A stretch of 64,000 bases of DNA from Chrysomallon squamiferum (lineage: Eukaryota > Animalia > Mollusca): contig CM022672.1 of assembly GCA_012295275.1 (NCBI GenBank), forward strand, positions 8,308,001 to 8,372,000, read 5' to 3'. Position 1 is the first letter of the stretch; each line of letters starts with the position of its first letter. The position numbers and the translations under genes are program-made. The notes beneath the pieces were generated by a model, which saw only the letters and a program-made list of their open reading frames with translations, was not told the origin of the DNA and did no database searches. Shown here piece by piece: positions 9,301 to 61,894 of the stretch.

Positions 9301-12300
9301 CTGTCTAAATTCCTGTAACTTTCTGGCTCAATCTGTAACAGTGTTTACAGTATTTTTAGATTCACTGTCAACATTTAAATTATTTCTACATTAGACTGTC
9401 AACATCTAAATTATTGCCATATAACACTGTCAATATTTAAATTATTTCTACATTACACTGTCGACATTTAAATAATTTCTACATTACGCTGTCAAATTTA
9501 AATAATTTCTACATTACACTGTCAAATTTAAATAATTTCTAGATTAGTCAACATTTAAAATATTTCTACATTTTCAACATTTAAATTATTTCTGTATAAT
9601 GCTGACAAATTTATATAATTTCTACATTAAACATTACACTGTCAACATTTAAATAATTTCTAGATTTCAGTCAACATTCAAGTAATTTCTACATTACACA
9701 TTATACAGTCAACATTTAAACAGTATCTACATTAGAAAGTCAGATTTAAATTATGTCTACATTACTGCTGTATGGCATCAGCTAGATTTCAATGTAATCT
9801 GACAACATCTTGAAGAGAATGGATCTTGAAAACTATCAAACGTGTTTAATACATCAACACCAAGCTACAATCCATTTGCAGACTCTTACCTTTGCTGATG
9901 ATTTAGATTTGTTGGTTAAAGACAGAGACAGGGGCAGGAGGTGAGCCTCTGTGGTGAATATGTAATCATCTATTGGTAACACGTGATCCTCAGGCTCGGA
10001 AAACAGCAGGTACAGATATTTAAATGTCTCTGCCAGCATGTACGAATCCATCCTGTATGAAATAGCATCTTTATTATTATTATTATTATTATTATTATCA
10101 TCATTATCATTATCATGATTATTGTTGTTGTTATTGTTGTTGTTGTTGTTATTTGATTATTATGATTATTATTATTAACATTGTCATTTCATTATCATGA
10201 TTATTAATATTATATTATTACCCAAGAACTTTTATTCTGTATAACTTGTTATAAAGTGTATGAACATTATTAATTATGACTTCTATAAAAACAGTATCAT
10301 ACTGGTCTTCATGTGTTCCCTTCGTTAAATCTTTAATTGCAGCATATCCACATGGAACTCGGGCATGTTTCTCTAAGTTGTCTATTATCAGTTTACCTAC
10401 ATCCAGGTAGTGTGCATCACCTGTAGCCTGAAATAATTAGCTTTAATTAATACAGGTGTGGCAACAAATTAAAAAAAAATCAAAATAAATTATAAAAAAT
10501 ATCTCAACAATAGAAATGTATGTATTTATTTGCAAAGATCATTGATAATGTGCAGTGTATTAAAATTTATAATAATTGTAATACATACGAATGTATAAAC
10601 ATAAAGACTTAACAATACAACTATATACATTTATACAGTGTCACATGCAGTTTTTGGTGCTCTGAATGCTAAATATAATTTATACACGCACACAAATACA
10701 ATCTATGAACAAAATACACATACATGAATTTTATTACAGGCAATAAATTATTATTCAAATAATCAATATCACACTTTCATCAAGACATTGTAATAAAACT
10801 GTCAAACTAAAGTAGACAAGTGTGACAATTTATTCAAATTTGTATAACTGAAACTACATCAAAGCTTCATCATTCAAACAAAATAAATCACTTTCAATTT
10901 AATCGTAAATTTGTATATTTATTAACATTTATTGTACATTTACATGAATGTAAAAATAAGTGAATTTTTTATTAATTATAAATTTGCATTCATGCAGTTA
11001 AAACTGATCAAAGATTTTTTTCAAATAATTCAATCACACAATTAAACATGCTCCAGTTTTTTTTAGGGAGAGGGGTTAGAGAATACAGGTTTGTGTGTGT
11101 GTGCTCATATGTATATTTGATACTATAAAATACAAAGCAGATAAATAATAAATTTACTTTTTTATATAACAAACAAGCTGACATTTCTGTGGGTCAATAT
11201 TGATGATATGTGGATATAACATTTGAGATGTACTAAAAATTGTTAAAATATTAAATATTAAGAGCTATTAGTGTTGGTTACCTTGTATAAGAAATAGGTG
11301 GACTCAACAAACTCTGGTCGCAGAGGGTGATGTCCCCAGTGAATTCGGAAATCTGTTGTAAAGGCCTGAATCAGAAAACTGGACATTTTAGAACTGGTGA
11401 AGTTTAAACAAACACAAATGTACAGACACACATATACATGCATCACCATTGCATACACATGGATAAACACACTATTACATAGACAAACACAGACAGGGAA
11501 ACACACACTCATAAACAAACACACACACAGATTCACAAACACAGAAACACACGTAAATAAGTATACACACACACACATATACAAACACATTATTTCATAT
11601 TATCTCACTTCAGGTAAGAAGTTGTGTCTCTGCATGACTTGGTACAACATTTCATGTGTTTCTACTGCTGGTCCAATGTCACCTTTTAACACCTGCAAGT
11701 ACATAGATTATATTTCTTATCATAATACCTCTTTGTCTATTACATAAAAGAACCATATATTTAAATTCTAGAAAAAACATAAAGAATGACAGATGAAAAA
11801 CAAATGAATATTTATATTTGACTAAACAGGTATCAGTAATTAGGAGATTGTGAACATCCGGATGACAACTAGGTCTGCCACTCTGTGAGTTAATCACTTA
11901 CAAACACAAGATGTTTTATATTCGTCTTCAACTAATACAAATTAGAATATCACAGTTGTTGTGAGTAACAAACAAATACAATTTATGTACGAACAGTGAG
12001 TAACAGTCTGCACTGGGAAATGACTTGATGAGTACAAAAGCTGAACTAATCATACAACCTGTCATTCCTTGTGTAAACAGACACTCTGTCAGTAAACCAT
12101 AGCACATTCCTAACTGTGGAGGAATTCATGTAAATTACCTGCAGACCTGGCCAGAAAGCCAGGAGTGAGTCCATGAAGTTACGAGAGACTGCCTCGGGTT
12201 TGTGCATGTGTACGTCAACAAGCAGCGGCCCCTGACTGACGTACCTCATCACCGCATCGTAGTGCTGAAAAATATTAACATCAACAAATAAATAATTATC

Positions 12301-15300
12301 TGCTGTTGAGGTCAAAAACTGACATGAATAAAACATTGTTTAAATAAACAAGCATACATACTTTTTACTTTTTAAAGCAACTCTGATATATGATATTAAA
12401 AGAGTAACAAATAACAAAAGTCTAATTAAACATGACTACTTATATCAAATTAATTTATTAAACCAAAGAATTACTGTGCAGTAAGACTGGTTTAAAAGAA
12501 ATAAATCAAAACAATTGATGTTACCTTATTAAATCTGTCCAAGTAGGTCTCATCTCCTAGAAGAATGTACGCTTTGAGTACGTACTCGTAGTATGAGTCA
12601 ATCCCTGCACCAACCCCACTCTCTGAAACAGAATAGACAACTCACCAAATAAGATACTTCCTCATTTAATTATTCATTTTGTTTACAGGAACATTAAAGC
12701 TGTTCAGTATTTGTGATTAAAGTCACAGAAAAAGACAAAAATCATCTACATTCTCAGAACCAAATCATGTTTAGTTGTCAAATACTTCTATTAGTGGGGA
12801 TAAATATCATGATTTAGCTCAGATAATAAACATATTATCCTCTTTGTTTAAACTAAAAAGAGTGCAGTGTTTAAATAAGAATAGCTATAAATACCTCTAC
12901 GTATCCAGTCACCGTTGTGGATGTTGATGACCATGCCCATGAGGTCACTTGTGTGATGTCGCTGATTCCATAAGAAGTCCATAGCTTTCTGAGCCTTCAT
13001 CTACACATAATAATTACTACAAATTAAAAACTTTTATTATGTCTTCAATTATTCTTTTAATGAAACTCAAAAATGAAATATTTTAATGATAATTTCAATA
13101 TGTATAAAGAAATGAAAACAACATTTTTTAAAAACTAAAATATGCATATCACATTACAATAATAAGTAAATTTATCAGTAACAAATATTGTACTCAGAGT
13201 ATTTCATAACTCTGAAATGTTGCAAAGACTTGTTTTATAAAGAAGAGAAAGATGAAGCAGTGTCTACCTCGTATCTGGGGTCACCACTCAGTCGACTGAG
13301 AGCAGCAAACTCAAGAATCATTGTCCCTGCACACGCAGTACATGTGTCCTTGTTCTGTGTACTGATTGCATCATTTATGCCACTCCGCAAGTTTATCTGC
13401 AACATGCAATCAATAAACACTCAGTACATTTTAATGTTAATGTTATCACGTGTTGAAATCTATTTGGAAATTATTTTATTTTAATATAATGAAAAACCCC
13501 TGACCCACCCACTGCAGACAGCACTCTATTCTTACCAACACTTTGATTTGATATTTTAAAATATATATTCTGACATAAAGAAGACACTGGTGAGAATGTT
13601 AACAACATCTACCCTGGGATAAGGAATTCCTGTGGTGGTGTTGAAGGCTGGCATCAGTCGGTCTCCAACCTCTTTTGCCATGTCAAGCAGCTCCTGGTTA
13701 TACCACATCATTCCTTTCTTCTTCTTCTTAAGATAACTTGCAACCACATGTCCTCCCAGAAGACCTCTGAAAAAAACAATAATAATAATAATAATAAATT
13801 AAAAATATAAATTTGGTAAATTACTACTGACTGAAACTAACTGTCATACTAACAGACTGATTTTGTCTACCTTCTGTTTTTTCCTTTCTCTCATCTCTCC
13901 CTCTCTTCTTGCTTTCCCAAGCTTTCTCATCTCTCTCAATAATACAGCTAATCATTATTATTACTCAGCCAATAACATATTTCACTATTAAGTAATTTAA
14001 TTAAAAAATCCAATTTATAAATCTTACCCTAAAATTCTGATGTTTGTTTCAAACACAGACACAATAATGTCAGCATCATACTTGGCATCTCTGATGACAT
14101 TCTGCACCGCAGTCTCAAACTCAACCAGTTTCCCAAGAACCTGGAAACATTCAAATACATCCTGAGTAACAAAGTGTCAATATACAATATACACAGAATA
14201 TGTTGTATAAATTCATTTTTATCGAAAATAAAAAAAATAAAAATACCAACAAGAATAAACAACTAATTTATCATGAAAAAACATTAAATAAGACAATAAT
14301 TCAAATAGTTATTACAATAATATGAATAAGCATTTTTTTTTTGGACACCAGTTAACAATTGCATAATGAATTCAGAAAGGTATGCACCTCCATCACAACG
14401 AGATGAGAAAACAATGTATGCTTGTTATACTTACTGCCAAACTATCCAGGGAATCGATGAGTGTGAGAGTAAAACTGAAATACACAGAGAAAAATAAATA
14501 ACCAAAGAGAGAATTTTGATTTGTTAAATATTAACAGTTGCTGATATTACATGTAACACCAATGTTGTCAAACATATTTAAAAGAGCATTATAGAAAATT
14601 TTACTTTTTATTTTTTAATTCTTCATCTGTGTTAAAATACCATATTGGACATCATACTGGTCATATTTTTAATCTACACAGGTTTTCAGCATAATGGACT
14701 CACAGACAGAAATATATGTCTTAATGTGAGTATTATAAACTAGTGTGTTGAATTTAATAAATTTTTGTTATAAATACTTGTAACCATTACTACAAATAAA
14801 TAAATAAATTAATTAATTAATTAACACATGAACTTACTTTCCTAGTGTGTCGTCAACATCTCCTCGACTGGGTTTGGTTCCTCTGTATCTTCCTTTACAA
14901 CTCAGTGGCATCAACTCATCTGCCGGGTATGCATGTTTCTGAAATATAAATAATGATAATAACAACAACATGAAATAATAATGATAATAATGATAATAAT
15001 GATGATCATATATCATAATGATAAAAATAGTAACAGTGATAATAAATAATAATAGGAAGTGATAATAAAATAATAGTAGCACTACTACTACTATTGCTAA
15101 TGTTAACAACAACAACAATAGTAACAACAGTAACAATGATCATATGTGCTTTTGCACTGTTTCTAAACTGACTGATCTTTACAAACCGAAATAGGTTACT
15201 CACCATATAAGATCCATAAGCGTGGTCAAACATTTGAAGAACTTGTTCCCTGCAATAGCCAGAAATATCTCAAATCTACTTCCTTTTCAGTTAATTCATT

Positions 15301-24608: not shown

Positions 24609-28375
<3,767 letters not shown>

Positions 28376-28527
28376 ATTTATTATTTTATTCGAAAGTTTT
28401 ATTTAAGGATTAATAACACTCTGTGGTTAAGAATTTAACTACTGCAACTAGTAAAGCAGTTTATTTTGTCATGGGCGCAGACATATTGGAAACCTCAATT
28501 ATCAGAGAACATGTTAATATATATTTT

Positions 28528-35964: not shown

Positions 35965-38900
35965 CAAACACACACACCTTGAACTATACATGGAAGCAGG
36001 TGAAATAGCAGTTGGTTATTTCCACCAATCATAGGTAAAACAAAATAGTAGCTGACAAAGTTTGGATGAATTATTATCATTTAGTTAAATCATTTTAATG
36101 AAAGAATCATAAAATGTACTCATCTTAACTATTATAAATAACATATGCTAAAAAAAAATATATATAAATAAAAAGACAGAAAGACAAAACGGATAGAAAA
36201 AAATAAAAATAAATTAATAATAAAACAAATAGGTGAAAGCAAAGACATCTATATATTCTGCTGTACAATGTTTACTTATGAAAAATGATAATACACTGAA
36301 AAATGAAGATTTGATCAATATTGTTCTTTCTTTTACTGTTTTTTCCTTTAAAATATAAACTTAAACCTTTTTTCATTAATATTTTTATTAATTATTATTT
36401 TAATTATTATTAATTTTAAATTTATTTATTTTGTTCACAGTGAGATGGCAGGACCTGAACCCGAGTATTCCAATGTAACATCAGGATATAAACTGTTTGT
36501 CAGCAAATCTCCCTTCTCCCTTAAGTACAACAGTGGTGTCCTCCCTGAATTAAACATAGCCTATGAGTCGTGGGGAAAGTTGAATGAACAGCGAGATAAT
36601 GCAGTTATTATACATGCTGGATTGTCAGCCAGTTCACATGCCAAAAGTCACAGAGTATGTTTATTTTATACTATCTCATTTTTTATTTATTTTATCTTTT
36701 TTATCCTCTCGTTATTTCTTTAGAAATCCTTATTTTTTAAATTTCTTTTAACAACATATTCACCTACAAACCACATGCATAGCAAATAGGTAAATGTAAT
36801 ATGCATGGCAATAAAATGTTCTTCATGTTATTCAGTAAAATGAATATTTAATGATATTATGTCAACACAGTTTATATATTCATTGTTATTCATTAACCAT
36901 ACAGTTGGTTAGCTTGGGATTATTAAATGAACTCTTTCCCATAGGAAAACATTTACAACAGCCTTTGATACAGAACTATGCAGAACATAGTAATAATAAC
37001 TGATGATGATAGCAACAACAACAACAACTTAAGTATAAGAAAATAATATATTGTCTGATTTACATGAACACTACCGAATAGTTATTTATCACTTATATAA
37101 TAACTGATGATGTTATATCTTAAAAGTGATTTTGAAAAGTCTCAGTGTATTTATATAAAGGAACATCTAAAATCAAAATATATTTATCTAATAAAACATA
37201 AATAATTAAGATGAATATAAAGATGATTTTAGGAAAACCATGCTTCTTTTATATATATATATATATATATAAAAAAATAATAATAAAAAAGAGACAAAAA
37301 CAAATAAATATAATAATAAAATAAATAAATAATAATTAAATATAATAAATAAATAAAAAGTAAATAAAACTACAAATAAGATAATTAATTGGAATTACAC
37401 AAAATATATTCCTTCAAATGTGTGTGTTTAATAAGAAAAAGAAAAATTTGATTGTATCATGTAAATTATTATGTATCTCACAATATTTTTTTTATTTTTT
37501 TCATCTTCATCTCAGTTACAGTTTAATTGAGAAATTGAATATTTAATTCAGACAAAGTTAGTATTTATTTCCATTTTTTGTTTGTTGCAGAATAACCCAT
37601 CACCAGGTTGGTGGGAGAAGTTTGTTGGACCAGGGTGTGCAGTGGATACCAACAAATTTTATGTCATCTGCACTAATAACCTGGGTGGTTGCTATGGAAC
37701 TTCGTAAGTAGCTTTTATTTTCATTGATTTTTACATGAATTAATTACTTTATAAGTAGTTCTTTATTTTTTAAATTCAGATCTAAAAGACTGCTTTAATG
37801 TCCCCATATTAAATTAATAATAATAATAATAATAATAATATCATTATCATCATCATCATCATCATAATATTTTTTTTTTCTAAACTGTTAATAAAAAAAT
37901 AATTTTCAGAACAAAAATGTATATAATACTTTGGTTTAAATCAACCATATCGACCGTCATACATCATTGCACATCACATCTGTGACCAGTATATTTTTTT
38001 TCACTTTGTAATATTTATAAAACAATGAGAAATTTTGCTGTTTGCACATATCTTATCAACTATTGGCTTCCAGAAGGGTGGGGGAAATCAGTTTGTCTTT
38101 AGACATGGTTGTTTTGGAAATGCATCCTAACATTGGCTGCTAACACACTGACAATGACAAACTGACTGGAAATTTAAATCTGAGCTAAAGCCATTGATTA
38201 TTGTGTACCTGTTCTAACAGAATCCTAAATTTTGATACTAGATTATGTCTGTGTCAGCTATACATTAATTAATAGTTTTCTGAAAGGAACAGGGTTCTTT
38301 ATTTACATCAGATAATTTGAAATGCTGTCTGCGTCTGGTTCTTCAGTGTCTTCTTGTTTCAGTCTACTTTGTACTTACCTATCCATATGTAAATCATAAC
38401 CAGCAGCCTAAAATTATAAATATTTGTAATGGATTTTACACATCAAGTTTGTCATGTAATATGAAAACAGTTATCAGCTTTTTATTTCTCCTACAGACAT
38501 ACCACAGACACATGAAAAATATTAATTTCAGTGTAGCAAATGCTTGCATATTGTTTGTCCATTTTGTGTATCTCTTCTTTCTTTTTTTTATATATATATA
38601 TATAAAAATCTACATATGAAAATAAAGTAGTTCTCTAACCTGTTTTTGTTATTTTTTAAATAAATATTATCTTTTCTTTTTTTAAAATATTTTTGCATTC
38701 ATGTTGTACACAGAGTACAAACTAGTGCAAGTGGCACTTTAATTTGTTTATGCTAGTTTTTGTTTTCTATGGCAGGGGCCCATCGTCTGTGAACCCCCTC
38801 ACCAACCAGGTATGATGATTCAGACAAAACTACAAAATCTTTTTATCTCTTTTTTTTTTTTTCTTCACTAAACAAACAGACTCTGCCTACATATAAATTA

Positions 38901-40393
38901 TGTATCTCTAAAGAATTGTTCTCACTGTGTGATTTGTAGTAACAGTTTAGAATATATTTTTGTTATGTGAATATTTAAACTTTTATGGCAAACTCTTGAC
39001 CCTTGAGAAAAGTAAAATATTTTTAAAAAATCATGTGAATAAGAAATTGAATTACCTACTGTTGACAATGATAGAAAAAACTAAATTTAAAAAAATAAAA
39101 TAAAATAGAATAACCTTAATCAATAAAGGGATATAATTCTTTCTTTGTATTTTACATTAAACTGATTGCTAATATTAAACAAGCCATGTTGAAAAAACCT
39201 AGCACAGAATAAAACTAAACTCATTCTGATGTGTTCCTTTTCATAACACATTTTATTTGTCAGTACAAGTTGCATAGTGAGAACACTCCTTTATTATATA
39301 GCATTTTAAAAATATTTTGTTATTATGTGTAACTCAGTGTGTATTTCATTTTATTTTTATTTTTATTTATTTATTTATTTATTTATTTATTTTATTTTAT
39401 TTTATTTTATTTTATTTTATTTTTTGGTATCATTATTAGTAATATGTACTATACTTCTTTTTTCATTTTTCATTTTAATAAAATATTAAATTAAAAATAT
39501 TTGAAAATTGTACAACCCATTGTTCCATATAAATTTGATTTATTTATTATTTGTTTTAATTAATAAAAAAAAAGTATGGAGTGAATATAATTTAAGATTC
39601 TAACCATTTGTGTATATATATATATTTTCAGATCCTAACCATTTGTGTACACTATAATCTGTTTATCAAATATTCTTCGTTAAACTTGACACCTGTGTTA
39701 CATTCCCAGTTGTAAATTGATACATTTTTTAATGTCTGTTAGGTCATTTTGTAATATAAGTAAGAAAAATGGAACTTACTGCTGAATTAAAGACTACTCT
39801 TATAAACAGTGAGACATTTCATATAAGTTGTTTTTTGCAAAGATAAAAGTGTATACCACAGTTTTTGTTGTTTTTTCATATCAAATATGAGGTAGAGATT
39901 TGAGTGAGAACATTTTTTTTTTTTTTATGGAGGATTAATCCTATCACCCATCATTCCTGTAGCAAGTTGTCTAAAGTGAACTCAGAACTACTCCAAAAAG
40001 AAATATTTTAATATATTCCATAAAAAAATTTTGTCTCCATATTATGAGCATTAACATTAATTTACTTTTGCCATTATGATTTATATATATATATATATAG
40101 GAAAAAAGAAGTGATGATGAGAAATTTTTGAATTAGAAATTTTAGCAGTCATTTCAGCTTTATGCTTTGTTTGGAAATTTGGTGAATGGTTTAGTGTCTG
40201 TAACTAACTTTTTAACAAATTTAGCATTGGATTTTTTTTGTTCTTATAACTGCTTTTTTATTTATTCATTTATTTATGTTAAAACACTGCAAAAGTGAAA
40301 AATATAATTTAGAACTTGCTACTAAAGAATCAGTATGTGTCATTAAATATTATCTTTCTTTATTTTTTTGTTTCTTTCTTCTGTTTTTTATTT

Positions 40394-40428
<35 letters not shown>

Positions 40429-43400
40429 TTTTAATGAAGTTACTTAATTCTGATGCCCATATATATTTTACTGATTTAACATCAGTTTTTCAATCAGTAG
40501 ACTTTAATTATAAATATTCTATGGCTATTTCCAAGTGTTCTATTCACATCCTACAGTACATCTTAGACAACAGACTAGTATAATGCTAATTTAAGAATCT
40601 AGTATAATATTTCAGTATTGACTGTCAAGATTAGCTGACTTAAAATACAGCTAAAAAACCCCAACAATTAAATATAAAATATTGTTAAATTTAAACACAG
40701 AATTGTAATCAGTCTTACAATAGTAATGTAATCATATGATTAATTATATTATTTCTAAATACATTTATAATTATTCAGAAAGGTATTCCTAAAATTAGAA
40801 ATATGTTTTATAATCTAAAAGCATTACAAAGAAAAACAAGAAAGCATAATAAAAACTGTTTAAAGTTTATTTTAAATGTTTTTATTTTGTTTATATTTTT
40901 AGCCATATGGTACAAGTTTTCCAATTGTCAGTGTAGAGGATATGGTTAGAGCACAGTTTTTGCTTATGGATCACCTGGGAATTAAAAAGGTAAAAATGTC
41001 TGATACACCTTATTGGATATTGTTAATTTAAATCATTTGTAAACTGTGGTATCCTTGAACAAACCCCCCCCCCAAAAAAAAACAATAATATAGCAATAAT
41101 AAAAAATAAAAACTCAATCACAAGTGAACGAAAAAAGTGATCTTTAATCAGACAGTAGCTCTTAGAACCTTATTAAGTTATGCCTGAATAGCTTTAAATT
41201 TAAAGTAGTTTAAATGCCATATTATTATTCATGTTTATTTTTTGCTTCTTAGAATTGGTGAAAGGATTTATTTATTTGTTTACTTGCTTTTATATTTATT
41301 TCTGTGTTAATCTATTTATATTTATGTTTTAATCTGTTATTTAATTTTCCAAATATTGCCCAGAAAAGGTAGAGTTCCCTCTTTCTAACTTACTGATTGT
41401 ATTATAAATCTATTTTTCATCTTTGCATGGAACTTGTTTTATCAATAGGTGTGTCATTTTGACTGAATATATTTGTGTGTTATTTTCAGCTTCACGGGGC
41501 AGTTGGATCATCACTAGGTGGGATGTGCTCGTTGATGGCAACAATCTTGTTCCCAGAACGAGTTGGAAGGTGAGACATGATACTGTCAGAAAATAGTTTT
41601 GTTTAAAAAAGGTGGGTTGTTGTGTGACATCGTTGTTCTTCAGTTATCTGTAAATTTAGACATAATTAGAAATTTGTGTAGTATGACTGGCCTTAGTACA
41701 GGATTTCTCTTTTTCATTCTCAGTTTAATTTGATTCAAATGCTTACTATGCTTAGGTCATCATAAAAGAACAATTTACTTGTTAGTATAATCATTATAAT
41801 TTATTTTACTGTTTATTTTTCAGTGAGTGTGCTTACAAAAATTAATAAAAAGAAATTATATCTGTGTTGTCTCTGTACAGGCATCTCTGTCTCTTTTTCT
41901 CATCTCTCTCTCTCTCTTCAAACAAAACTATCTTTTCATTGATATTGTAAACTTAAATCATTCTAATTTTATTTTTTTAAAGTAAACAATACTTATTTTG
42001 ATAATGAATACTAAAATAAAGTTTTAAAACATCAGTTATAAATATTAGTTATTTATTTTTCAGATTTGTTTCAATATCTTCGTGTGCGCAGTCTCACCCA
42101 TCGTCCATTGCAATGCGGTACTTACAGAGGAAGTGCATAATGAGTGACCCTAACTGGGACAAGGGACATTACTACAATGGAAAGTTTCCCAAGATTGGAA
42201 TGAAGCTGGCAAGGTTCGTCTTTGTTAATGTAAATACAAAAACGAAAAAAAGGAAAATCTATTCCACCATATATCTAACATAATTGGTTCTCTGGGAAGT
42301 TTTGATCCCATGACCTCTGATCTCACAGCTTAGATATACTTACAGCTTGCTCATTTATAAAAATTATCAGAAGATAACCTAATTATAAAAGTTTTCTAAA
42401 CAAGATAAATTATAAATTATGAAAAGTTGCAAAATCGTTTATTTATAAATTGAACATTAAAAGAAATGATCATTGTAAAGATTTTATTCGTTTATTAATT
42501 TCTTTTTATTCTATTATATTCTATTGTTTTCTTAAAAAGTTAATTACAAATTTTAAAATACAACTCCATTACAAATGCATGATAACATTTGTTTTTATTA
42601 TTTTTATTCAATATTTCTAGAGAAATTGCGACACTTACCTATCGCAGCGGACCCGAGTGGGATGAGAGATTTGGTCGACTTAGAATCAACGACAATGATG
42701 CTCCTTCACTCTGCCCAACATTTAACATAGAAAGTTACCTGGAGTACCAGGGTGAAAACTTCAGCACTAAATTTGACCCCAACTCTCTCCTTTATATTTC
42801 TAAGGTATCCTTATTTTTATTTATTTATTTGTATGTATGGATTTATAATTCTTTCCATATATGTATATTTGTGTGTGTGTCTGTGTAATTTTTGTTTGGC
42901 AGGAGTTTAATTATATCATGAATATTCCAGTATGTGTAATTTTCATTTATAATTATCCTTTTCTTGTTTCTTGTAGGCCATGGACCTGTTTGATGCAGCT
43001 GAAGGATTTAACTCACTGGAGGAAGGATTAGCTAGGATCACTTGTCCTGCGATGGTCATTGGTGTCCAGACAGACATACTCTTTCCCATCTGGCAGCAGA
43101 GAGAGCTGGCCAGTGCCCTGCAGAGAGCAGGTTCAAATCTTATTAACATCTTTTATATATCTGTCTGTTCTAACAGTTATTTTTTGTGTTGAATTTAATT
43201 ATTATTAGTTTCACTGACATTAGCCATGGACTGTGTAGTTTGTCTTTTAAGGTTCTTATCTGAAATGATATATACTACATAATTAATTTTCACTTATTTC
43301 CCAATCCAGCCAGATGCCCAACAACTTGTTTATTAAAATCTGAATAGAAATCATGATTCACATCTCAACTCATCTGACATTTTTCAACACAGCAAAAAAA

Positions 43401-46465: not shown

Positions 46466-46607
46466 TTATTCCTCCTGAACATGAAGAGAAGGATTTCCAA
46501 ATGTCAATAAAATACCATGATTTTCTAAATATTCACGTCTTGTCTGGAAAATAAAATTTTTAAAAATACCTATATATATATATAATTAAATTTAGATTTT
46601 AAAAAAA

Positions 46608-46639
<32 letters not shown>

Positions 46640-47132
46640 CTCACTACCAATAATCAGTACCAAATTTAAAAATTATTCATATCAGTAATTTGTGTAAAAA
46701 TTCATATTAAAAAATATATTTATTTCAATAACTTAATGTAATTATTTAAAAAAAATTAAACTTATTGCAGTCATATTCAAATATAAAGTTAAAAATATGC
46801 TTGTTTCGATAATTTGTGTAAATATAATACATATAAATATTTTAATACCTTTGATAAATTAACACAGTAAATTTACAAAAAAATATTACATTTTACTACA
46901 ATCATCATGAATAAAACTTAATTTTGCACAAAAGAAATGTAAAAACATTTGTGCTATATTCATTTATTTTTATTTTATTTATTTTTTTGAGTGTATCTTT
47001 TTACTAATTAATTTTTTCACCAGATTGCAATTTTAGATTTTAATAATAATCATAGTAATGCTTACACGATAAATTGCATCTTTTTTTGCCAATAATCTCC
47101 TCTTTTGTAGAGCCTTTTATAAAACAGGAGTC

Positions 47133-47191
<59 letters not shown>

Positions 47192-50100
47192 TACAAAATA
47201 ATGATAATAATAATATGTATTACAATAATAATTATGATAATAAAAATAATAATAGCAGTCATAATCTTGATAAACTTGAAGAAGAGGATTATTAAGAAAT
47301 CTTGTACCACTTCCATCTGAACTATCTCCATTACTTCTTGAACAAACACAATGGCATCTCCATTACTTCTTGAACAAACACAATGGTATGCATCTTTATT
47401 ATTACTTGTTTACTATACATTCAGCAGTGAAAGGTAATATGTTAGTGTTGGTTAAAATCTACTTTTTAAATTCTTTGACTTACCAATATTGTTAAAAAGG
47501 ATTACTTTGATATGTAGGTAATTCTAATACTGTTTTATATACTAAATAGGAAATATATGTGAAAACTTACTGTCTGGAAAATATAGTAACCGAGGATCAT
47601 GTGGAAAGCTATGAGAACTGCACACAAAGATGCGATTGTCCAGTTGTCCCAAAGAATGACCTCACTGAGTGGAAGCCATTTTGATAACCAACACATCACG
47701 GAACTCTCCGATGACAACATGGCCAGAAAGAACAATGTTCCAAATAAATATATGTCCTGAAACAGTAAGTAAATAAACAAGTAAATAAATAAATTAAATT
47801 AAGTAAGTGAAATTAAATAATTAATACATAAATAAGTAAATAAACAACAAACACATAAATATCTTTAATAAATATGAAAAGGTAAACAAACCAAAAACTA
47901 AAATCAATAAATATGTAATAAATAAATTTAATTGATTAATAAGTAAATAAATTTAATAAATAAAGGAAATAAAAGAAAACCAACAATTAAAAATAAGTAA
48001 ATAAGTAAATAAATAAATAAATAAACATACGAGGTAAGTAAGATAGGAAATTGTTGGTAGATGTGATTTGAGAACTAGCTTGAATGTCACTGTGGTCAAA
48101 AACAAAGTTATTGTCAGACCCATTCTGTCTGGATTATTTGCATCGATAGAAAAGCCACAAAAAGAAAGTGCTAAAATGAGACACTGAAAATTAAAATAAA
48201 AATAAAATAAAATTCCTAAGAACATTTATTTAAACAACTGTTAATTAATCAAACCTCGATCTCATTTATTTAGTTATTTTCACTTCTTTAACTTTTACTT
48301 ATTTCAATGCTAAACCAGTCTATTTCAAATTTACCACTCTCTTATTAAAATTATTTATGAAAAAGGAAAAGTATATATAAAATCCACTTTGCTTACTACA
48401 ACAATGACGACATTGTAGAAGAAGAAGCCAACCTTCCTCTTCACTTTAATAAGGACGTAGAGGACAGAGTGGACGCTGAAGCTTGCATACTCTCGCGTGG
48501 TCATGGTGCTGACAGAGTCAACATGCTGGTAGATTGACCATTCCTGGGAGTCAAGAAACATGTTGATGTTCACGTTACTCATTGCGTGTTTATCTTCCTT
48601 TATCTCAATCTCTTCTATAGTTTTCTCGCTGGATACCTGGATCCCCAACTCCTTAGTGAAAATTATAATAATAAAGAAATGAAGTAATTAAAATAATATT
48701 ATAGAATTAAAATGAAATGAAGTGCAATGAAATGAAGTGAAATAAAACGAAACAAAATAAAACCTAAAAACTAAAACAAATTAAATTAAATTAAAATAAA
48801 TTAATATTAAAATTAAAATAAAACTAAAATATCATAAATGGTAAAAATAATACTAAAATAAAAATTAAAAAATTATGGTTAGAAATAATTAAACAAAATG
48901 AAATACTAAAAGAAAATTAAATTAACATAAAATTACATAAATTGAAATTCTAAAATAATAATAAAATACAAACAAAAACAAGTAAAATAAACCAGAAAAA
49001 AGTAAAAAAAAAAAAAAAAAAAAAACAATTATGGCCAAAACCCTGACCATACCTTGAGGATAAAATAAGATTTTATACACAAGATTTATATAAAGGGTTT
49101 AAAGATGATCATGCATACAAAATACAGAACCACAACTAAGTCCTTTACATCAAGACTTGGTTTAAAGATCCATAAAGCTTTTACAATAACAATTACAAAC
49201 AATTACATCCCCACACACACACACACAAATACAGATACACTCAGGCACACACAGAGAAACAATTATAAACAAAAAATAAATTAAAAATGACAATAAATAA
49301 CTACAGTGACAGAAAACTAATGTTATTACTGTTTAGATATACAAAATGAAAAATAAGGAACTGACAACAACAAAAATAGTTTTTGATATTATGATGTAAC
49401 AAATACTACCTGGACATCAAAAGGAAAATGTTCTAGTTCCAAATGTTCTCGAAAATTTCCTTTGATCCTCCACAGGAGAACAACAACAGGGTTAACATAA
49501 CCCTCAGAATGAAATCTGATAGTGTAATTCTTCTCGTTAATGTGAAAATCTCCATTCAGGTTTAGAATCATTAACTTTGGTTCCCAGTATAGGTGTGGAT
49601 CAAAATTGGGTTTATCCTGTGAAAAAAGATTAAATAAATAAAATATGCAGTCTTTTTTACCATAGCTCTAAAGGTCTCATGCAAGCAGCTCTACAAGCAG
49701 CTCTGTTATTTGTCACAGTCATACCTTTTCTAAGCCACTGAAAAAAGGTTCCTCCCATTTAGCTTGTATAAGAACTTCAGCATCAAAGTTCTGCATCACA
49801 GTGTCAATGTCTCCAATCTTCAGAAATGTACATCTTATCTCCACAGTTATCTGTAAACAGATCAGTGATTAAAAACTCTACTGCAAAAGAAATGTCAACA
49901 ACAAAAAAAAATGATAATAATTTTGTTATGTATAGACTGTGAGACTGTTTATTTTTTTTAAACAAATCCAGAAAGTGTAATGCACTTGAAAAATGTAGTC
50001 ACTGATTGTTTTGTTTTGTTTTTAAATTTTGGTTGACGTACATTTTACTATTTTATTATACTGAAAATCATTTCATTTCATTAACTACCCTTTCCTGAAA

Positions 50101-50649
50101 CTATGGATTATTCCTTTTATATGTGGGTGTATGTGCGTGTGTGCGTGTATATACTAGTAACGGTAAACAAAACATTTTATTTATTATAATAAAGAAGGAA
50201 CAAATGAATAAATGAAGGTATAAAACGAAGGAATCAAGGATTTAAAAATAATAAAAATAAAATTGCAGTCCTAAACGTTTACATTATCAGTCAACATAAA
50301 CGTTCATTCGAATATAATTATTGATTTAAAGACCGGAACGTTAATCAGGCTAGTTATCTACCTATCAATAACAAGTTATTGTTGTTGTTGTTGTTATTAT
50401 TAAGCAACAAAACGATTGTTTTACCAAATGGTTTGCTCTGTGCGTGTTTCTCATGTTTTCTTTCCCGTTAACTTTTTGTAATATACGACTTGCCAGTTCA
50501 TGAATGGATGCTGTTGTTTTATTCATTTTAGTATTATTATCCTTCAGTACACTTCTCAGTCTTTCAGCTATCTGCTTCAACGTTTCGGGCTCTGTCGACT
50601 TCGTAATGGTCTTGGGGCACATTGTTGGTGACATCCGTTTTTCTGACAT
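46466..50649 (-). CDS. Cys-less (Pro-loop) pentameric ligand-gated ion channel subunit, paralogue A (~425 aa)
   Basis: Eight phase-0 exons: 50425-50649, 49725-49850 (ITVEIRCTFLKIGDIDTVMQNFDAEVLIQAKWEEP), 49410-49616 (YWEPKLMILN...GNFREHLELEHFPFDVQ), 48397-48651 (...DSQEW...KVKRKVGFFFYNVVIVV), 48031-48183 (M1 end, NPDRMGLTITLFLTTVTFK, LPTISYLTYL), 47571-47756 (M3, M4), 47066-47113 (ALQKRRLLAKKDAIYR), 46466-46543 (TRREYLENHGILLTFGNPSLHVQEE*). Confidence 0.9.
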
Positions 50650-51341
50650 CGTTTTACGGTCTTATTATTATTTTTATTTGTGTTGTTATTACGTGGGCTT
50701 TAACTAAAAAATTATTGATTATGCACACATCTATTGTAAAAACCTGCTTTCTTGAAATCGCTGTGTTGATGCAAACGTTATTTTAAATACAATAGACAAG
50801 GATTCGTTTACTAAAATTAACTTCAGCAAAAACGTCAGTTTCTTCCTCGTACAGGGGAAATAACTCGTTACATCGACGCTAAACTTGTATGTCCGGCACT
50901 AAGTTTATGAATTTATTCCAAAACTATCTTACGTCAAAACTGTTATTAAAGATGTCAAACTTTTTAATTCTTTAAGTATTTATTTATTCATACTGCTTCA
51001 CAATTAATCCACAGAAACATTATTATTATTATTTATCCATTTATTTATTTATTCATTTTTGAAATTTAGTTCTCAGATATAGTTAACATTTAATATAAAA
51101 AATGAATAATTATTATGAAAAATTTTTAATGGGTCTTTTCCCTTTATTTTTTGAAGTTTTAAATAATGAAATAAGCAACAACATCGTAATTTTAATAGTC
51201 AATATAATGTACAGTAAACATATCTTTACAGATTGAATTTAAGACAGATTTCAAAATAATATTATGTACTACTCTCTTTTCACTTTTTAAGACATGTTCA
51301 ATAATTGTAATGCAATAAATTTTAATAATAATATCTTCATT

Positions 51342-51751
51342 TTATTCATCATCAACTTTGAGAGATGAATATCCTGCTGACAAAAGTACTCCATGGTGAT
51401 CCAGGTAGTCACGTTTTTTCTGTAATAATAAAAATCAAAAATTAAAAATCATTCCTAAAAGTGTACTTCTGATGATATACAGTAATAATCTGAATATAGT
51501 CTGTATAAATACATTTATTTATTTTTTGCTGTCCACTCTTTCTTAAAAATAAAGTATAAAAACAAAACAAAAAAAAAAAACAGATAAAAAATATCTGGCA
51601 CTGTCTGCAAAGGAATTGGTTTAATGGGAAAAACAAAATATGCAAACATGTATATAAAAATAATCAAAGAAAATAAAAGAGAAGAGAAGAGAACAAAAAC
51701 GAAATAATAATAATTATCATTTTTTAAATATCTACTCTTATCTGAAATATG

Positions 51752-51809
<58 letters not shown>

Positions 51810-52313
51810 CGATAATAAATAATGACAAGTAAATAATGATCTTGTTATAATATTTTCATGTTTCATAAAAAAAAATGTATTTTAGAAAAATATAGATTGT
51901 AATTAAGCTATTGGATGAAATCAAATTTACAAATAAAAAAGGCGAATTTAAAATACATACTCCATATTCCTTGTCCTTCTGTTTCATCAGTCTTCTTCTC
52001 TGCATTGCCTTAATAATAAAAATAATAATAATAATTATTATTTTTATAATAATAAGTACAAGAAAAAGAACAAAACCAGTGATAAAAACCAAAATAACTA
52101 TAACAGTAACAAAAATAATTAATATAGCAGCAATAATATCAATACCCTCAAAATGTAAACTATAACAATAGTAATAACAAAAAAGCAACAACAATAGGAA
52201 TAACAATAATAGTAATACTACAACTAATACTATAAGTAGTATTAATAATAGTAATAACCATAATTTTACTAACAACAAAAACAAGATCAATAACAGCAAT
52301 AATAGCAATAATG

Positions 52314-52346
<33 letters not shown>

Positions 52347-54146
52347 TAAAGAAGAAGAAGAAGAAGAAGAAGAAGAAGAAGAAGAAAAAAAAGAAGAAGA
52401 GAAGAAGATAAATATAATAAAACTAAGGTAAACATTATCAGTGCACAAATGTATAGGTACCGTATTGTAAATATTAAAAGCAAAGATGAGGTGAAAAGCA
52501 ATCAGTATTACTCCAAATGAAGTGAGAGTCCATTCATCCCAGATGACAACGTCAGTGACATGTATCCATTTTGCAAGAGCACACATGATGGAGCTCTCAG
52601 CAGCCTGCATTGTCAGATACACCATTGTGGCTAGAATGTAGATGTCCTGAAATACAAAAAACAAACAAATAAATAAATTGTTGCTTACCTGTACAACGGT
52701 CAGTTGTATTATTAATTTGTTAACTGTAATAAGATATTTTAAATAATTATTTATATAATCATATTTATATATTTTCACTGTTAACTATAAAAACCTGTGG
52801 TATCTGCTTTACCTTCTGCAGGTAGGTGCACACAGAAGACAAATGAAAGAAATAATAACTATTTTACATAACAATCACACAATAGTTAATATTTCTTCAC
52901 TTGTCTGCTCTGTGCACCCACCTGCAGAAGGGAAAGCATATACCATAGTTTTTGATAATTAACAGTGAAAATATATAAATATAATTATATAAGTAATTAT
53001 TTAAAGTGATTAGCTAAAACAGAAATAACTACAGCTTGGTGTTCCAGTAAGCATTTATTATTTTTTTTTTTTTTTTTTTTTTAAATGACTTTCTACAGAG
53101 AAGGAAGATCAGAATTATACACATACCAGATAAGTAAGATAAGATATTGTTGGTAAAATTGTTTTCACAACCAGTTTGAAGAAAACTGCTGTGAGAAACA
53201 AGGTCACTGTACAGGCCATTCTATCAGGATTGTCAGCATCAATTGACAAAGTGGAAAATGCAAGTCCCAAAATCAGTAACTGAAACAAGATCATAATAAC
53301 AAGTTTTAAACTGTTATATTAATTACTGAATTATTTATTTAATAATGTTCCAGATGTGTGTCTGAAATTTAACAATTTCTTACCTTCCCATGGACAGGAA
53401 GAAAGAATTAATGGTTTTTGATAGCAACCATCAGTCATGGTAATGAGAAATAATCCAAGAGGCATTAATCCTAATGACCCTGTGTCATGATCTACATCTT
53501 TGTTACAGGACTGTTTCTGAAACATTTCTTAAGTCAGAATATGACATGATCGTGCAAATGGCTTCAGCCAATTTCGCCAATAACCAATTGCAACTATTAA
53601 GCTTGACAGGTGACACTGAAGAGTTTTGAAAAAAAAAGGACCATGGAGTACAAAAACTGATACTACTTGCAACTATGACAATAAAATTCCAGAGGAAGAA
53701 GCCAACTTTTCTCCTGACCCGACATTGTACGAACAGCAGTGGATGGACAGTGCAGCTGGCATGTTCCCGAGTGGTCAGTTTGTGAGTGCACTCAACATGT
53801 TGATAAACTGACCACTCCTGCGTGTCCTGAAACATATTGATGTTCACTGTACTCATAGAATGTTTGTCTTCTATTATGTCTATCTCGTCAATAGTTCGCT
53901 CACTTGATACCTGAATTGTCAAGTCCTGTTTAAAATAAAATAATTTAATTGTCATCAATTTATCTGTTGAGCTTTAAAAAAGTAAGGAAAATATATTATA
54001 TACAGTGATTATATACAGTATAAGTGAAATTTCCAAAATATAAGTCTTGATTAACAAAAGCATAGATCAGCAGATGTATTTCTTACACCGAAATAATTAA
54101 AGCAATCCTAACCTTTTCTAAGCAGCTACAAAGACAAAACAACAAC

Positions 54147-54179
<33 letters not shown>

Positions 54180-54705
54180 AAAGGCTGTGATATAACAGTG
54201 TAACAACCTGAACATCAAATGGGTAATGTTCAAGTTCCAGGTTTTCTCTGAACTTGCCACTGAATCTCCAGACCATCACAACAACAGTGTGGTCATATCC
54301 AGCCTCCTGAAACTTGACGTTGTATACTTTTGATTCCATGTTAAATGGACCCATAACATTAGTGATGATTAGCAGAGGATCCCAGTACCTCTTCTCATTA
54401 TATAGTCCTTTTATCTAAACACAAAATACTTATCAAACATTATCAAACATATCAAAATTAGTGTAGATTAAACTAAATTAAAAAAATAAATAAATTAAAA
54501 AAAGATATTACAAATATATTGACAAATCTAAGACTATTTTAAATTTCACAAATAGTCTCACACACACACACACGTACATACACACACATGGATACAGAGG
54601 CACACACCAACACACCCATGCATATACACATACATATATATAGATATATAAATACATACACATATTTATGCATACACACATACATACATACATACATATA
54701 TATAT

Positions 54706-54754
<49 letters not shown>

Positions 54755-56032
54755 AAAACTCACATGCAAACACATACACATGTACATATACAGACACAGA
54801 TATACACACATCAGATACATAGAAGGACGTATATACCATACACTTTAATGGTTTATTACATATTTAAATCTGTCTCTAAAATATTTAAACAAAATAAATA
54901 TATCATTTAATTCTTTTTTTCAAAATAAATAATAATAATAACAATAATAATCATAAAAATAGTAAACAAACACTAAAACAACTAAAACAAAATAAAAATA
55001 ACAATAAATTAACAAAAATAACAAAACAGAAAAAAATTCTCCGCAAATAAAACCTACATTAAAGCAAAAAGAAAAGAAAAGAACAGGAAAATTACCAATT
55101 TTTTTTAAATAGTTAAGTAAGCAAACCAAAATATTTTTAAAACTAGTAGTAAATTAAATATCAGACTAAGCTTTAATACTTACAGTTTGCTGCTTTGCTG
55201 CCTGCAGGAGAGTTATTAAAATTTTATATCTGTTTTTATAATTTATAATTTATTATATTTTTATTACTTTAATGTGTTAGAACTGATCTGCATACAGATT
55301 CAAGACAATTAGGCATATATAACCAATTGCATGCTACATATATTTTATTTTATTTTAACATGCTTATCAGAATAATGGTTTTTGAAACATCTCCATTTCT
55401 CAGTACTAGGCTTTATACTTGAGTCTTTGGGGCACACAATCAAGGAGTTGGCCCCAAGCATCACCAGACCTCTGCATCCCACTGTCCATTGTGGATACAA
55501 ATTCAATGATTAACAATTATTTGTCTAAGACAGGCAAGACACTGTTGTGTTTCTGAACCTACCAGAACATCTTTGGTTACAAATGGTCACACCAGTAACT
55601 TAATGTTGATGATTTAGATGCAGTCTCATTGACTTAGATTAATCTCTTAAATATTTAAACATTATATCACCTCAGTGAAATCCAAAATAGGTTCCTCCCA
55701 TTTTGCTTGTATAAGAATTTCTGCTTCAAAATCCTGACTGATTGTATTAATGTTTTCAATCTTCAAAAAAGAGCTTTTCACTTCAACAACTGTCTAAAAA
55801 CCCCAGAAATATACATAATTTTGATTATTTATTTATTTAATTTTAATTATCAAAAAATAACACCAACGTCTTTTTATATAGTAAAAATAAATAATGTAAA
55901 AATACTTTAAAAATAAATATTGTTATTGAAATTAAAATTTTAAAATTTGAGTCTATTAATTATTATTCTTATTCTTTTCATATTAAACAATTTATTAAAT
56001 AAGTAAATAAATTAAATAAATAACATGAATAA

Positions 56033-56083
<51 letters not shown>

Positions 56084-56337
56084 AACAGTAATAATAATAA
56101 ATTTAAAAAAAAAATGTTTAAAATATTTTGCTTGTATTTATAATTTACCAAATAGTTTCTCCTTCGTCGAATGTTTGGGTCATGTCCAAGATCTACATTA
56201 TCAGAATCTATTATATGCTTTGCCAGTTTGCGTATTGATGATATAGCGTGATTTTGGAGGAAGACATTATCTTCTATCTTTCGAATAAGAATCCCTGCCG
56301 TTTCCTTTAGCGTTTTGACAGAAATACTCGTATCCAT
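51342..56337 (-). CDS. Cys-less (Pro-loop) pentameric ligand-gated ion channel subunit, paralogue B (~412-418 aa)
   Basis: Same exon architecture as A: 56149-56337, 55671-55793 (FLKIENINTISQDFEAEILIQAKWEEP), optional 55184-55201, 54208-54414 (YWDPLLIITN...GKFRENLELEHYPFDVQ), 53671-53925 (...RVRRKVGFFLWNFIVIV), 53127-53279 (NPDRMACTVTLFLTAVFFK...LPTISYLTYL), 52461-52646, 51961-52008 (AMQRRRLMKQKDKEYG), 51342-51419 (KKRDYLDHHGVLLSAGYSSLKVDDE*). Confidence 0.9.
52738..53005. mobile_element. Foldback/palindromic MITE with ~125-bp inverted arms
   Basis: The left arm tttaaataattatttatataatcatatttatatattttcactgttaa...ccttctgcaggtaggtgcacacag mirrors the right arm ctgtgcacccacctgcagaagg...ttaacagtgaaaatatataaatataattatataagtaattatttaaa. 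TTTAAA occurs at both ends. Confidence 0.85.
54558..54815. repeat. Degenerate (CA/TA)n tract
   Basis: Intronic low-complexity sequence. Confidence 0.85.
55447..55484. mobile_element. Probable DNA transposon terminal fragment
   Basis: GC-rich ...GCATCACCAGACCTCTGCATCCCACTG resembles a CAGTGG-type terminal repeat. No partner end was found. Confidence 0.3.

Positions 56338-58442: not shown

Positions 58443-61894
<3,452 letters not shown>

Follow-up and report, generated by a model that had tools for sequence, protein, structure and literature searches.

A tandem pair of Cys-less pentameric channel genes in Chrysomallon squamiferum whose sensor domain is predicted to face the cytosol

[quoted passage not shown] Gene B (56337-51342) encodes 412 amino acids (aa) and gene A (50649-46466) encodes 425 aa, with the outer coordinates as given in a preliminary description of the locus, and identity between the two proteins is 52% (212 of 408 aligned positions). 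In the spliced models each gene has eight coding exons, all 14 introns are in phase 0 and end in an AG acceptor, and all donors are GT except for that of B intron 4 (53671-53666, minus strand), a GC-AG intron where A has GT at the matching position. Exons 3 to 8 are equal in length between A and B (207, 255, 153, 186, 48 and 78 nt), and neither spliced reading frame contains an internal stop, i.e., both are intact modeled genes. We found no third copy of the channel family within the window. In one RNA run, 0.33 of the sampled words from 47500-50800 (gene A) were present, set against predicted shares from the A coding exons of 0.30 with exon 1 and 0.24 without it, and this word-share comparison suggests that gene A is transcribed including exon 1; RNA runs X2 (word share 0.15) and X4 (0.00) were counted as no evidence.

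Exon 1 (A, 50649-50425; first modeled coding exon of B, 56337-56149) encodes a hydrophilic N-terminus with no signal core by hydropathy, and in both genes it aligns with an amphipathic N-terminal helix conserved among orthologues. Exon 2 (A, 49850-49725; B, 55793-55671) precedes exon 3 (A, 49616-49410; B, 54414-54208), which alignment shows to carry the WxP motif and the Cys-less Pro-loop with its conserved acids E174 and E177 (numbered as in A). Exon 4 (A, 48651-48397; B, 53925-53671) encodes the loop B acid E195, residues D206, D220, E223 and H229, the basic, acid-free segment before the first membrane helix (pre-M1) and the start of a proline-less M1. By Pfam and alignment, exon 5 (A, 48183-48031; B, 53279-53127) holds the end of M1, the M2 pore helix with D-1', R0', T6' and L9', and the M2-M3 loop. 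Exon 6 (A, 47756-47571; B, 52646-52461) encodes M3, a short net-acidic M3-M4 linker and M4, and exon 7 a basic post-M4 helix, which has five Lys or Arg residues (K/R) within 15 residues of M4 in A (47113-47066) and six in B (52008-51961). Exon 8 (A, 46543-46466; B, 51419-51342) is the last coding exon.

Our analysis confirmed that both proteins contain the motifs by which they had been recognized, i.e., WxP, (F/Y)PFD, the pre-M1 Arg, M2 T6'/L9' and LPxxSY, and that the Cys-loop cysteines are absent. The superfamily criteria listed in Table 1 of PMC4795631 are the F/Y-P-x-D Pro-loop, the beta9 Trp, the pre-M1 Arg and the M2-M3 Pro, and A has F181/P182/D184, W224, R258 and P314 at these positions, with the same residues in B except for Tyr at 181. 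Position 14' of M1 is Val in both A and B, Pro at this position being 77% conserved across the superfamily and not absolute (PMC4795631), and a mid-M1 Pro is present in 3 of the 95 clade homologues and 46 of the 46 bacterial pLGICs in the comparison set described below. The Cys-x13-Cys pair that forms the disulfide of animal Cys-loop receptors is absent from both proteins; within the domain A has no cysteine pair, and the three cysteines of B do not form a conserved pair. Nor did we find the combination of a shifted YPFE and a loop C cysteine pair that marks the secondarily Cys-less anionic channels of nematodes (lgc-34 type), A and B both having (F/Y)PFD. Matches to the Pfam pLGIC families PF02931/PF02932 were obtained on single exons, one of them above the curated cut-off (A exon 5, PF02932, E-value 8e-7). 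For the fold, an AlphaFold model of the Gigantopelta orthologue, 59% identical to A, stands in for both proteins (predicted local distance difference test score, 87; predicted template modeling score, 0.76), and it has an N-terminal helix (residues 15-50), a beta-sandwich and four transmembrane helices, with M4 forming one continuous helix to residue 400. The PDB structures that match it best, at 17-19% identity, are those of glycine and GABA-A receptors, headed by GlyR alpha1 (6pls; TM 0.63/0.75, E-value 3e-20), and among the best 60 sequence matches listed from the PDB there is none from the Cys-less clade.

By sequence, A and B are ordinary members of the known eukaryotic Cys-less ('Pro-loop') pLGIC clade. 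A homology search with exon 4 of A by itself gave no match, but a two-exon profile built from exon 4 of A and B matched 264 proteins at E <= 0.001, of which the best 150 were listed. This profile retrieved A0A5K4EMP5 (P0026), which PMC9874803 names as a Cys-less channel, and its presence among the matches ties our homologue set to the clade of PMC4795631. With a limpet homologue as query, we identified relatives in molluscs, annelids, rotifers, nemerteans, acoels, hemichordates and amphioxus, with flatworm members coming from the profile search, and the closest relative found was Gigantopelta XP_041370704.1 (P0191), 59% identical to A over 416 aa and 56% identical to B. The Cys-loop cysteine pair occurs in 0 of 151 core-covering homologues, which were drawn from 277 collected proteins, and a search of the ESM Atlas by features returned only pLGIC or unnamed eukaryotic clusters. 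To these 151 database proteins we added A and B, the proteins of 70 out of 80 metagenome loci (10 were discarded because they were broken, contained introns or were duplicates) and those of bacterial loci (11 were discarded as duplicates or truncated), which gave 263 sequences; dereplication at 85% and a coverage filter reduced these to 195, and the requirement for a detectable M4, placed by an alignment anchor, to 176, i.e., 95 database homologues, mostly from named invertebrates, 35 eukaryote-type contig proteins and 46 bacterial pLGICs. The preliminary description had called for a phylogeny with bacterial and Cys-less members, and in a quick tree of 80 of the 176 rows, with Cys-loop rows outside its scope, A and B group with Gigantopelta proteins (Shimodaira-Hasegawa-like approximate likelihood ratio test [SH-aLRT], 99) and nest among mollusc members, while 21 bacterial rows fall on one side of a single branch (SH-aLRT, 99). 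Lottia P0173, P0174, P0176 and P0179 and Gigantopelta P0191, P0196 and P0006 are paralogues within this subclade whose contigs are of equal length within each species, and three of the Lottia locus numbers are near-consecutive, which suggests repeated tandem arrays of the subclade in gastropods.

The lack of a hydrophobic signal core at the N-terminus was borne out, since the best 19-residue window starting in the first 60 residues has a hydropathy of -0.14 in A and 0.47 in B, and by the hydropathy of the modeled N-termini neither protein has a cleavable signal peptide of the animal type. We extended this to all rows of the comparison set with at least 20 residues ahead of strand beta1, using a 10-residue hydropathy window with thresholds of 1.9 and 2.4 and scanning the whole N-terminal extension in eukaryotes and the last 70 residues in bacteria. 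Of the 88 database homologues, 30 eukaryote-type contig proteins and 45 bacterial pLGICs scored, 6, 3 and 42, respectively, reached the lower threshold and 0, 0 and 36 the higher one; 8 of the 46 bacterial rows are metagenomic and were labeled partly by their signal-like N-terminus, which is circular for this test, and the other 38 are from prokaryote genomes. A further 39 isoforms and cluster members, scored over their first 45 residues, all stay below 1.9. In addition, the 16 best metagenome contigs, which we infer to be transcripts, have uninterrupted open reading frames with an in-frame stop upstream in all 16, and of the 14 with a Met ahead of the match, 13 stay below 1.9. Relatives instead have hydrophilic N-terminal extensions of up to 1076 aa, rich in Ser, charged residues and Pro. 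On these predicted N-termini, the absence of a signal peptide is a property of the whole clade and is not peculiar to A and B. Among individual sequences, the Aplysia, Biomphalaria and Schistosoma proteins P0046, P0106 and P0026 have hydrophilic extensions of 600-1000 residues with no Pfam domain, and one bacterial pLGIC (L126) has no signal-like N-terminus (hydropathy, 0.65), which may reflect a start-codon or frameshift issue.

Five segments had been put forward as charge evidence for an inverted orientation, and the argument stands for three of them, pre-M1, M3-M4 and post-M4, and fails for M1-M2 and M2-M3, where counts of Lys plus Arg (K+R) are contrary to it. Pre-M1 is free of acidic residues in 95 of 95 homologues and 28 of 35 contig proteins, compared with 11 of 46 bacterial proteins. 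The flank between M3 and M4 has a mean K+R of 1.92 in database homologues and 1.51 in contig proteins against 4.78 in bacteria, and a net basic flank occurs in 15 of 95 homologues versus 42 of 46 bacterial proteins; solved receptors have basic residues directly before M4 in our alignments, and A and B do not. A post-M4 tail of at least 15 aa is present in 93 of 95 homologues and 35 of 35 contig proteins, and one with at least three K/R in 88 of 95 and 29 of 35, with 0 of 46 bacterial proteins having either. Overall, the K+R bias is reversed in 94 of 95 homologues and 34 of 35 contig proteins (score, -8 in A and -9 in B) and canonical in 38 of 46 bacterial proteins, and with the tail left out the net-charge bias is still reversed in 95 of 95 homologues and 34 of 35 contig proteins versus 8 of 46 bacterial proteins. 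The earlier caveat that canonical subunits are also basic before M1 is correct, with GABA-A beta basic at both pre-M1 and M2-M3 in the alignments. We also confirmed the NYT sequon in A (N147) that is not conserved in B; A has three more sequons (38, 43 and 360) and B has none. Across the 95 homologues, 41 beta-sandwich sequons were observed where 70.7 were expected, no site is common to more than three proteins, and there is no conserved cysteine pair in the beta-sandwich; this depletion and the missing pair are weakly compatible with a domain predicted to lie in the cytosol.

These sequence determinants point to the reverse of the canonical topology, in which the sensor is outside and the M3-M4 segment is cytoplasmic. 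We consider it likely that A and B sit upside-down in the membrane, with a predicted cytosolic location of the beta-sandwich and of both termini; the original suggestion of a cytosol-facing beta-sandwich gains support at the level of the clade from the signal-peptide, pre-M1 and M4 charge comparisons, M1-M2 and M2-M3 charge running the other way. The observed starting point is a pair of intact genes with pLGIC core motifs, no signal peptide and no Cys-loop disulfide. M1, as the first hydrophobic segment, would likely act as a type II signal-anchor, and it is just as likely that the basic, acid-free flank on its N-terminal side and the basic post-M4 helix would be kept in the cytosol, placing M1-M2 and M3-M4 on the lumenal or outer side. 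In signal-anchor topogenesis, insertion with the N-terminus in is favored when the flank is basic and acid-free and the domain upstream is large and folded. Four helices that begin with such an M1 would leave the C-terminal basic helix in the cytosol as well, matching the observed charge.

Pentameric gating would very likely be kept, because the coupling residues (Pro and Asp of the Pro-loop, pre-M1 Arg and M2-M3 Pro) are the same in 95 of 95 homologues and 91 of these retain L9'; R0' is invariant as well. The pore is probably cation selective, since both A and B have Asp at M2 -1' and the net charge of the sensor domain is -14. Where solved receptors have the loop-B aromatic, 78 of 95 homologues have Glu or Asp (E195 in A), and other acids of the sensor domain are conserved (E174 in 93, E177 in 93 and D206 in 89 of 95, with D220, E223 and H229 also conserved); this leads us to the tentative guess that the stimulus may be a cytosolic cation, Ca2+ before H+, which would be bound, again tentatively, by the clade-specific acidic cluster that replaces the aromatic. 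At M2 13', B has Phe and A has Thr, where 71 of 95 relatives have Ala, and the Phe may constrict the pore or indicate that B works only in heteromers. The whole reading, i.e., a channel with its N-terminus inside, permeable to cations and opened by a cytosolic signal, seems to us a reasonably probable one. With slightly less assurance, we favor its extension to the whole eukaryotic Cys-less clade, from protists to molluscs, flatworms and amphioxus, as an inverted pentameric channel lineage that would have arisen by one ancient loss of the signal peptide; on balance, we would also see in this lineage a neurotransmitter-receptor fold turned into a cytosolic second-messenger or ion sensor.

A number of observations weigh against this reading or parts of it. 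Mean K+R of M1-M2 is 1.43 in the clade versus 0.72 in bacteria, and that of M2-M3 is 0.92 versus 1.46, i.e., both run opposite to the expectation for an inverted channel, and we dropped the two loops as topology evidence; in addition, K+R bias without the tail is negative (reversed) in 53 of 95 homologues, zero in 29 and positive in 13. Our signal-peptide calls come from a hydropathy heuristic and not from SignalP, and the animal Cys-loop comparison comes from a small number of PDB alignments, in some of which the M3-M4 linker is engineered. The comparison of eukaryotes with bacteria is a single evolutionary contrast in which counts are not independent, and we set aside Mann-Whitney p-values because the groups are separated by one branch. 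As regards selectivity, M2 -1' is Asp in 43 and Asn in 35 of the 95 homologues, the molluscan 'Cys-less' clade is credited with anion-type motifs in PMC13174522, and the selectivity motif is described as not predictive outside the Cys-loop clade in PMC4795631. As regards a cytosolic stimulus, a Pfam scan of 50 database homologues and 30 contig proteins identified no fused cytosolic signaling domain, and an EF-hand pattern occurs in 0 of 202 eukaryote-type sequences. When we looked for longer fused forms, the single protein retrieved had no additional domain, which is weak evidence. Finally, gene B has a good splice acceptor 22 nt upstream of its ATG (pyrimidine tract, 0.75) within an open 90-nt stretch, making an upstream exon of B, non-coding or hydrophilic, possible.

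This acceptor is also what could be cited for the view that an unseen upstream exon encodes a signal peptide in A or B and that its absence is an annotation artefact, together with a hydrophobic, ATG-started candidate exon at 56682-56582 that lies upstream of B in the right phase. We rejected this candidate as intron-like, since it has a GC content of 19% and a coding score of -0.35, whereas the 16 real exons score 0.10-0.59 and a value as high as that of the candidate occurs in 45% of stop-free intron windows; an antisense control is equally rich in candidates, with three upstream exons against two on the sense strand. In gene A the reading frame is closed by a stop 12 nt upstream of the ATG, a stretch whose only AG is A-rich, and we identified no candidate for an alternative first exon; the DNA upstream of A is CpG rich (observed/expected ratio, 1.78 versus 0.38 for the window). 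With the Gigantopelta orthologue starting at the matching position and the signal absent clade-wide, we regard such an artefact as very improbable. A canonical topology without a cleavable signal, in which M1 would serve as a reverse signal-anchor and the N-terminal domain would be translocated outward to give an ordinary orphan receptor, is unlikely, although less so than the artefact: the fold is canonical, R0' is invariant, the M1-M2 and M2-M3 counts fit this orientation, and an extracellular domain is assumed in PMC9874803. It leaves unexplained the basic post-M4 tail, the lost basic residues before M4 and the sequon depletion. It would also require a folded domain of 186 residues and up to about 1000 hydrophilic residues to be translocated against a basic, acid-free pre-M1, and outward translocation against a basic flank is disfavored.

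An inverted orientation may also be right in the absence of a diffusible cytosolic ligand, with A and B forming a mechanically or protein-tethered channel, a leak channel in an organelle or a scaffold that conducts no ions; the N-terminal helix and long disordered extensions would be its docking sites. The conserved amphipathic helix, the very long extensions in relatives and the Phe at pore position 13' of B, where most relatives have Ala, would fit this, as would the planarian homologues reported in mechanosensory neurons with a seizure phenotype on RNA interference (PMC9874803, citing Ross et al. 2018). Against it, strongly conserved sensor acids specific to the clade and an invariant allosteric interface fit ligand-coupled gating, and we rate this alternative as improbable too, if a little less so than a canonical topology. 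An inverted channel opened by a cytosolic signal is the reading that we prefer to all three.

The window also contains other genes. A Polycomb-group RING finger gene starting at about 58443 (58443-60490, +), approximately 2.1 kb upstream of B and head-to-head with it, is PCGF-like, a name that we take from its N-terminal sequence, and its RAWUL match is weak (E-value 0.018). A glycosyl hydrolase 47 gene (9857-15139, -; PF01532, E-value 6e-15), presumably EDEM-like, and a dual-specificity phosphatase exon (28109-28402, -; PF00782, E-value 4e-4) have no link to the channels. Exons at 36352-42888 (+), for which Pfam on single exons gave no match, presumably belong to a homoserine/serine O-acetyltransferase-type enzyme.

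To our knowledge, every characterized pLGIC senses its ligand outside the cell. If A and B are inverted, a multi-spanning channel fold can flip wholesale with its gating machinery kept, the missing disulfide would be explained, the cytosol being reducing, and so would the orphan status of these channels, ligand screens being applied from outside. De-orphanization would then be redirected for a family found in molluscs, annelids, flatworms and amphioxus.

Among known systems, the bacterial pLGICs (ELIC and the 46 homologues in our set, GLIC being a further example) are like the clade in having no Cys-loop disulfide, the same core residues and a short linker between M3 and M4 (the median is about 15 aa for each group), and unlike it in having a signal-type N-terminus (42 of 45), Pro in M1 (46 of 46) and a chain that ends at M4. 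Animal Cys-loop receptors, i.e., GABA-A and glycine receptors, have the T6' and L9' pore residues in common with A and B, which lack their disulfide, M1 Pro, loop-B aromatic and basic residues before M4; these receptors also have a cleavable signal peptide, glycans and a large M3-M4 loop. Gigantopelta P0191, a protein with automatic annotation only, matches A and B in start position, N-terminal helix and basic tail. The clade itself was defined in PMC4795631 (Jaiteh et al. 2016) as one of Lophotrochozoa and protists, with undocumented biology and predicted non-synaptic expression, and reported as absent from vertebrates. Termini were discarded from that analysis, and it is there that the signal peptide is missing and the basic tail is located; we saw in PMC4795631 no statement on signal peptides or inverted topology. 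Signal-peptide prediction was run in PMC13174522, 41 octopus channels were screened with 18 ligands in bioRxiv 10.1101/2025.04.02.646353, and schistosome members were studied in PMC9874803 (Johnson et al. 2023), where cation selectivity was argued. In the full-text literature searched, which does not cover most subscription journals, we found no proposal of an inverted topology for this clade, and what is new here is that reading of an already published clade for which canonical topology had been assumed. In sequence, the Cys-less members of PMC4795631 and PMC9874803 do not differ in kind from A and B, having no Cys-loop cysteines and retaining F/YPxD, and the difference from PMC9874803 is one of interpretation, i.e., the beta-sandwich treated there as extracellular is the domain that we predict to face the cytosol.

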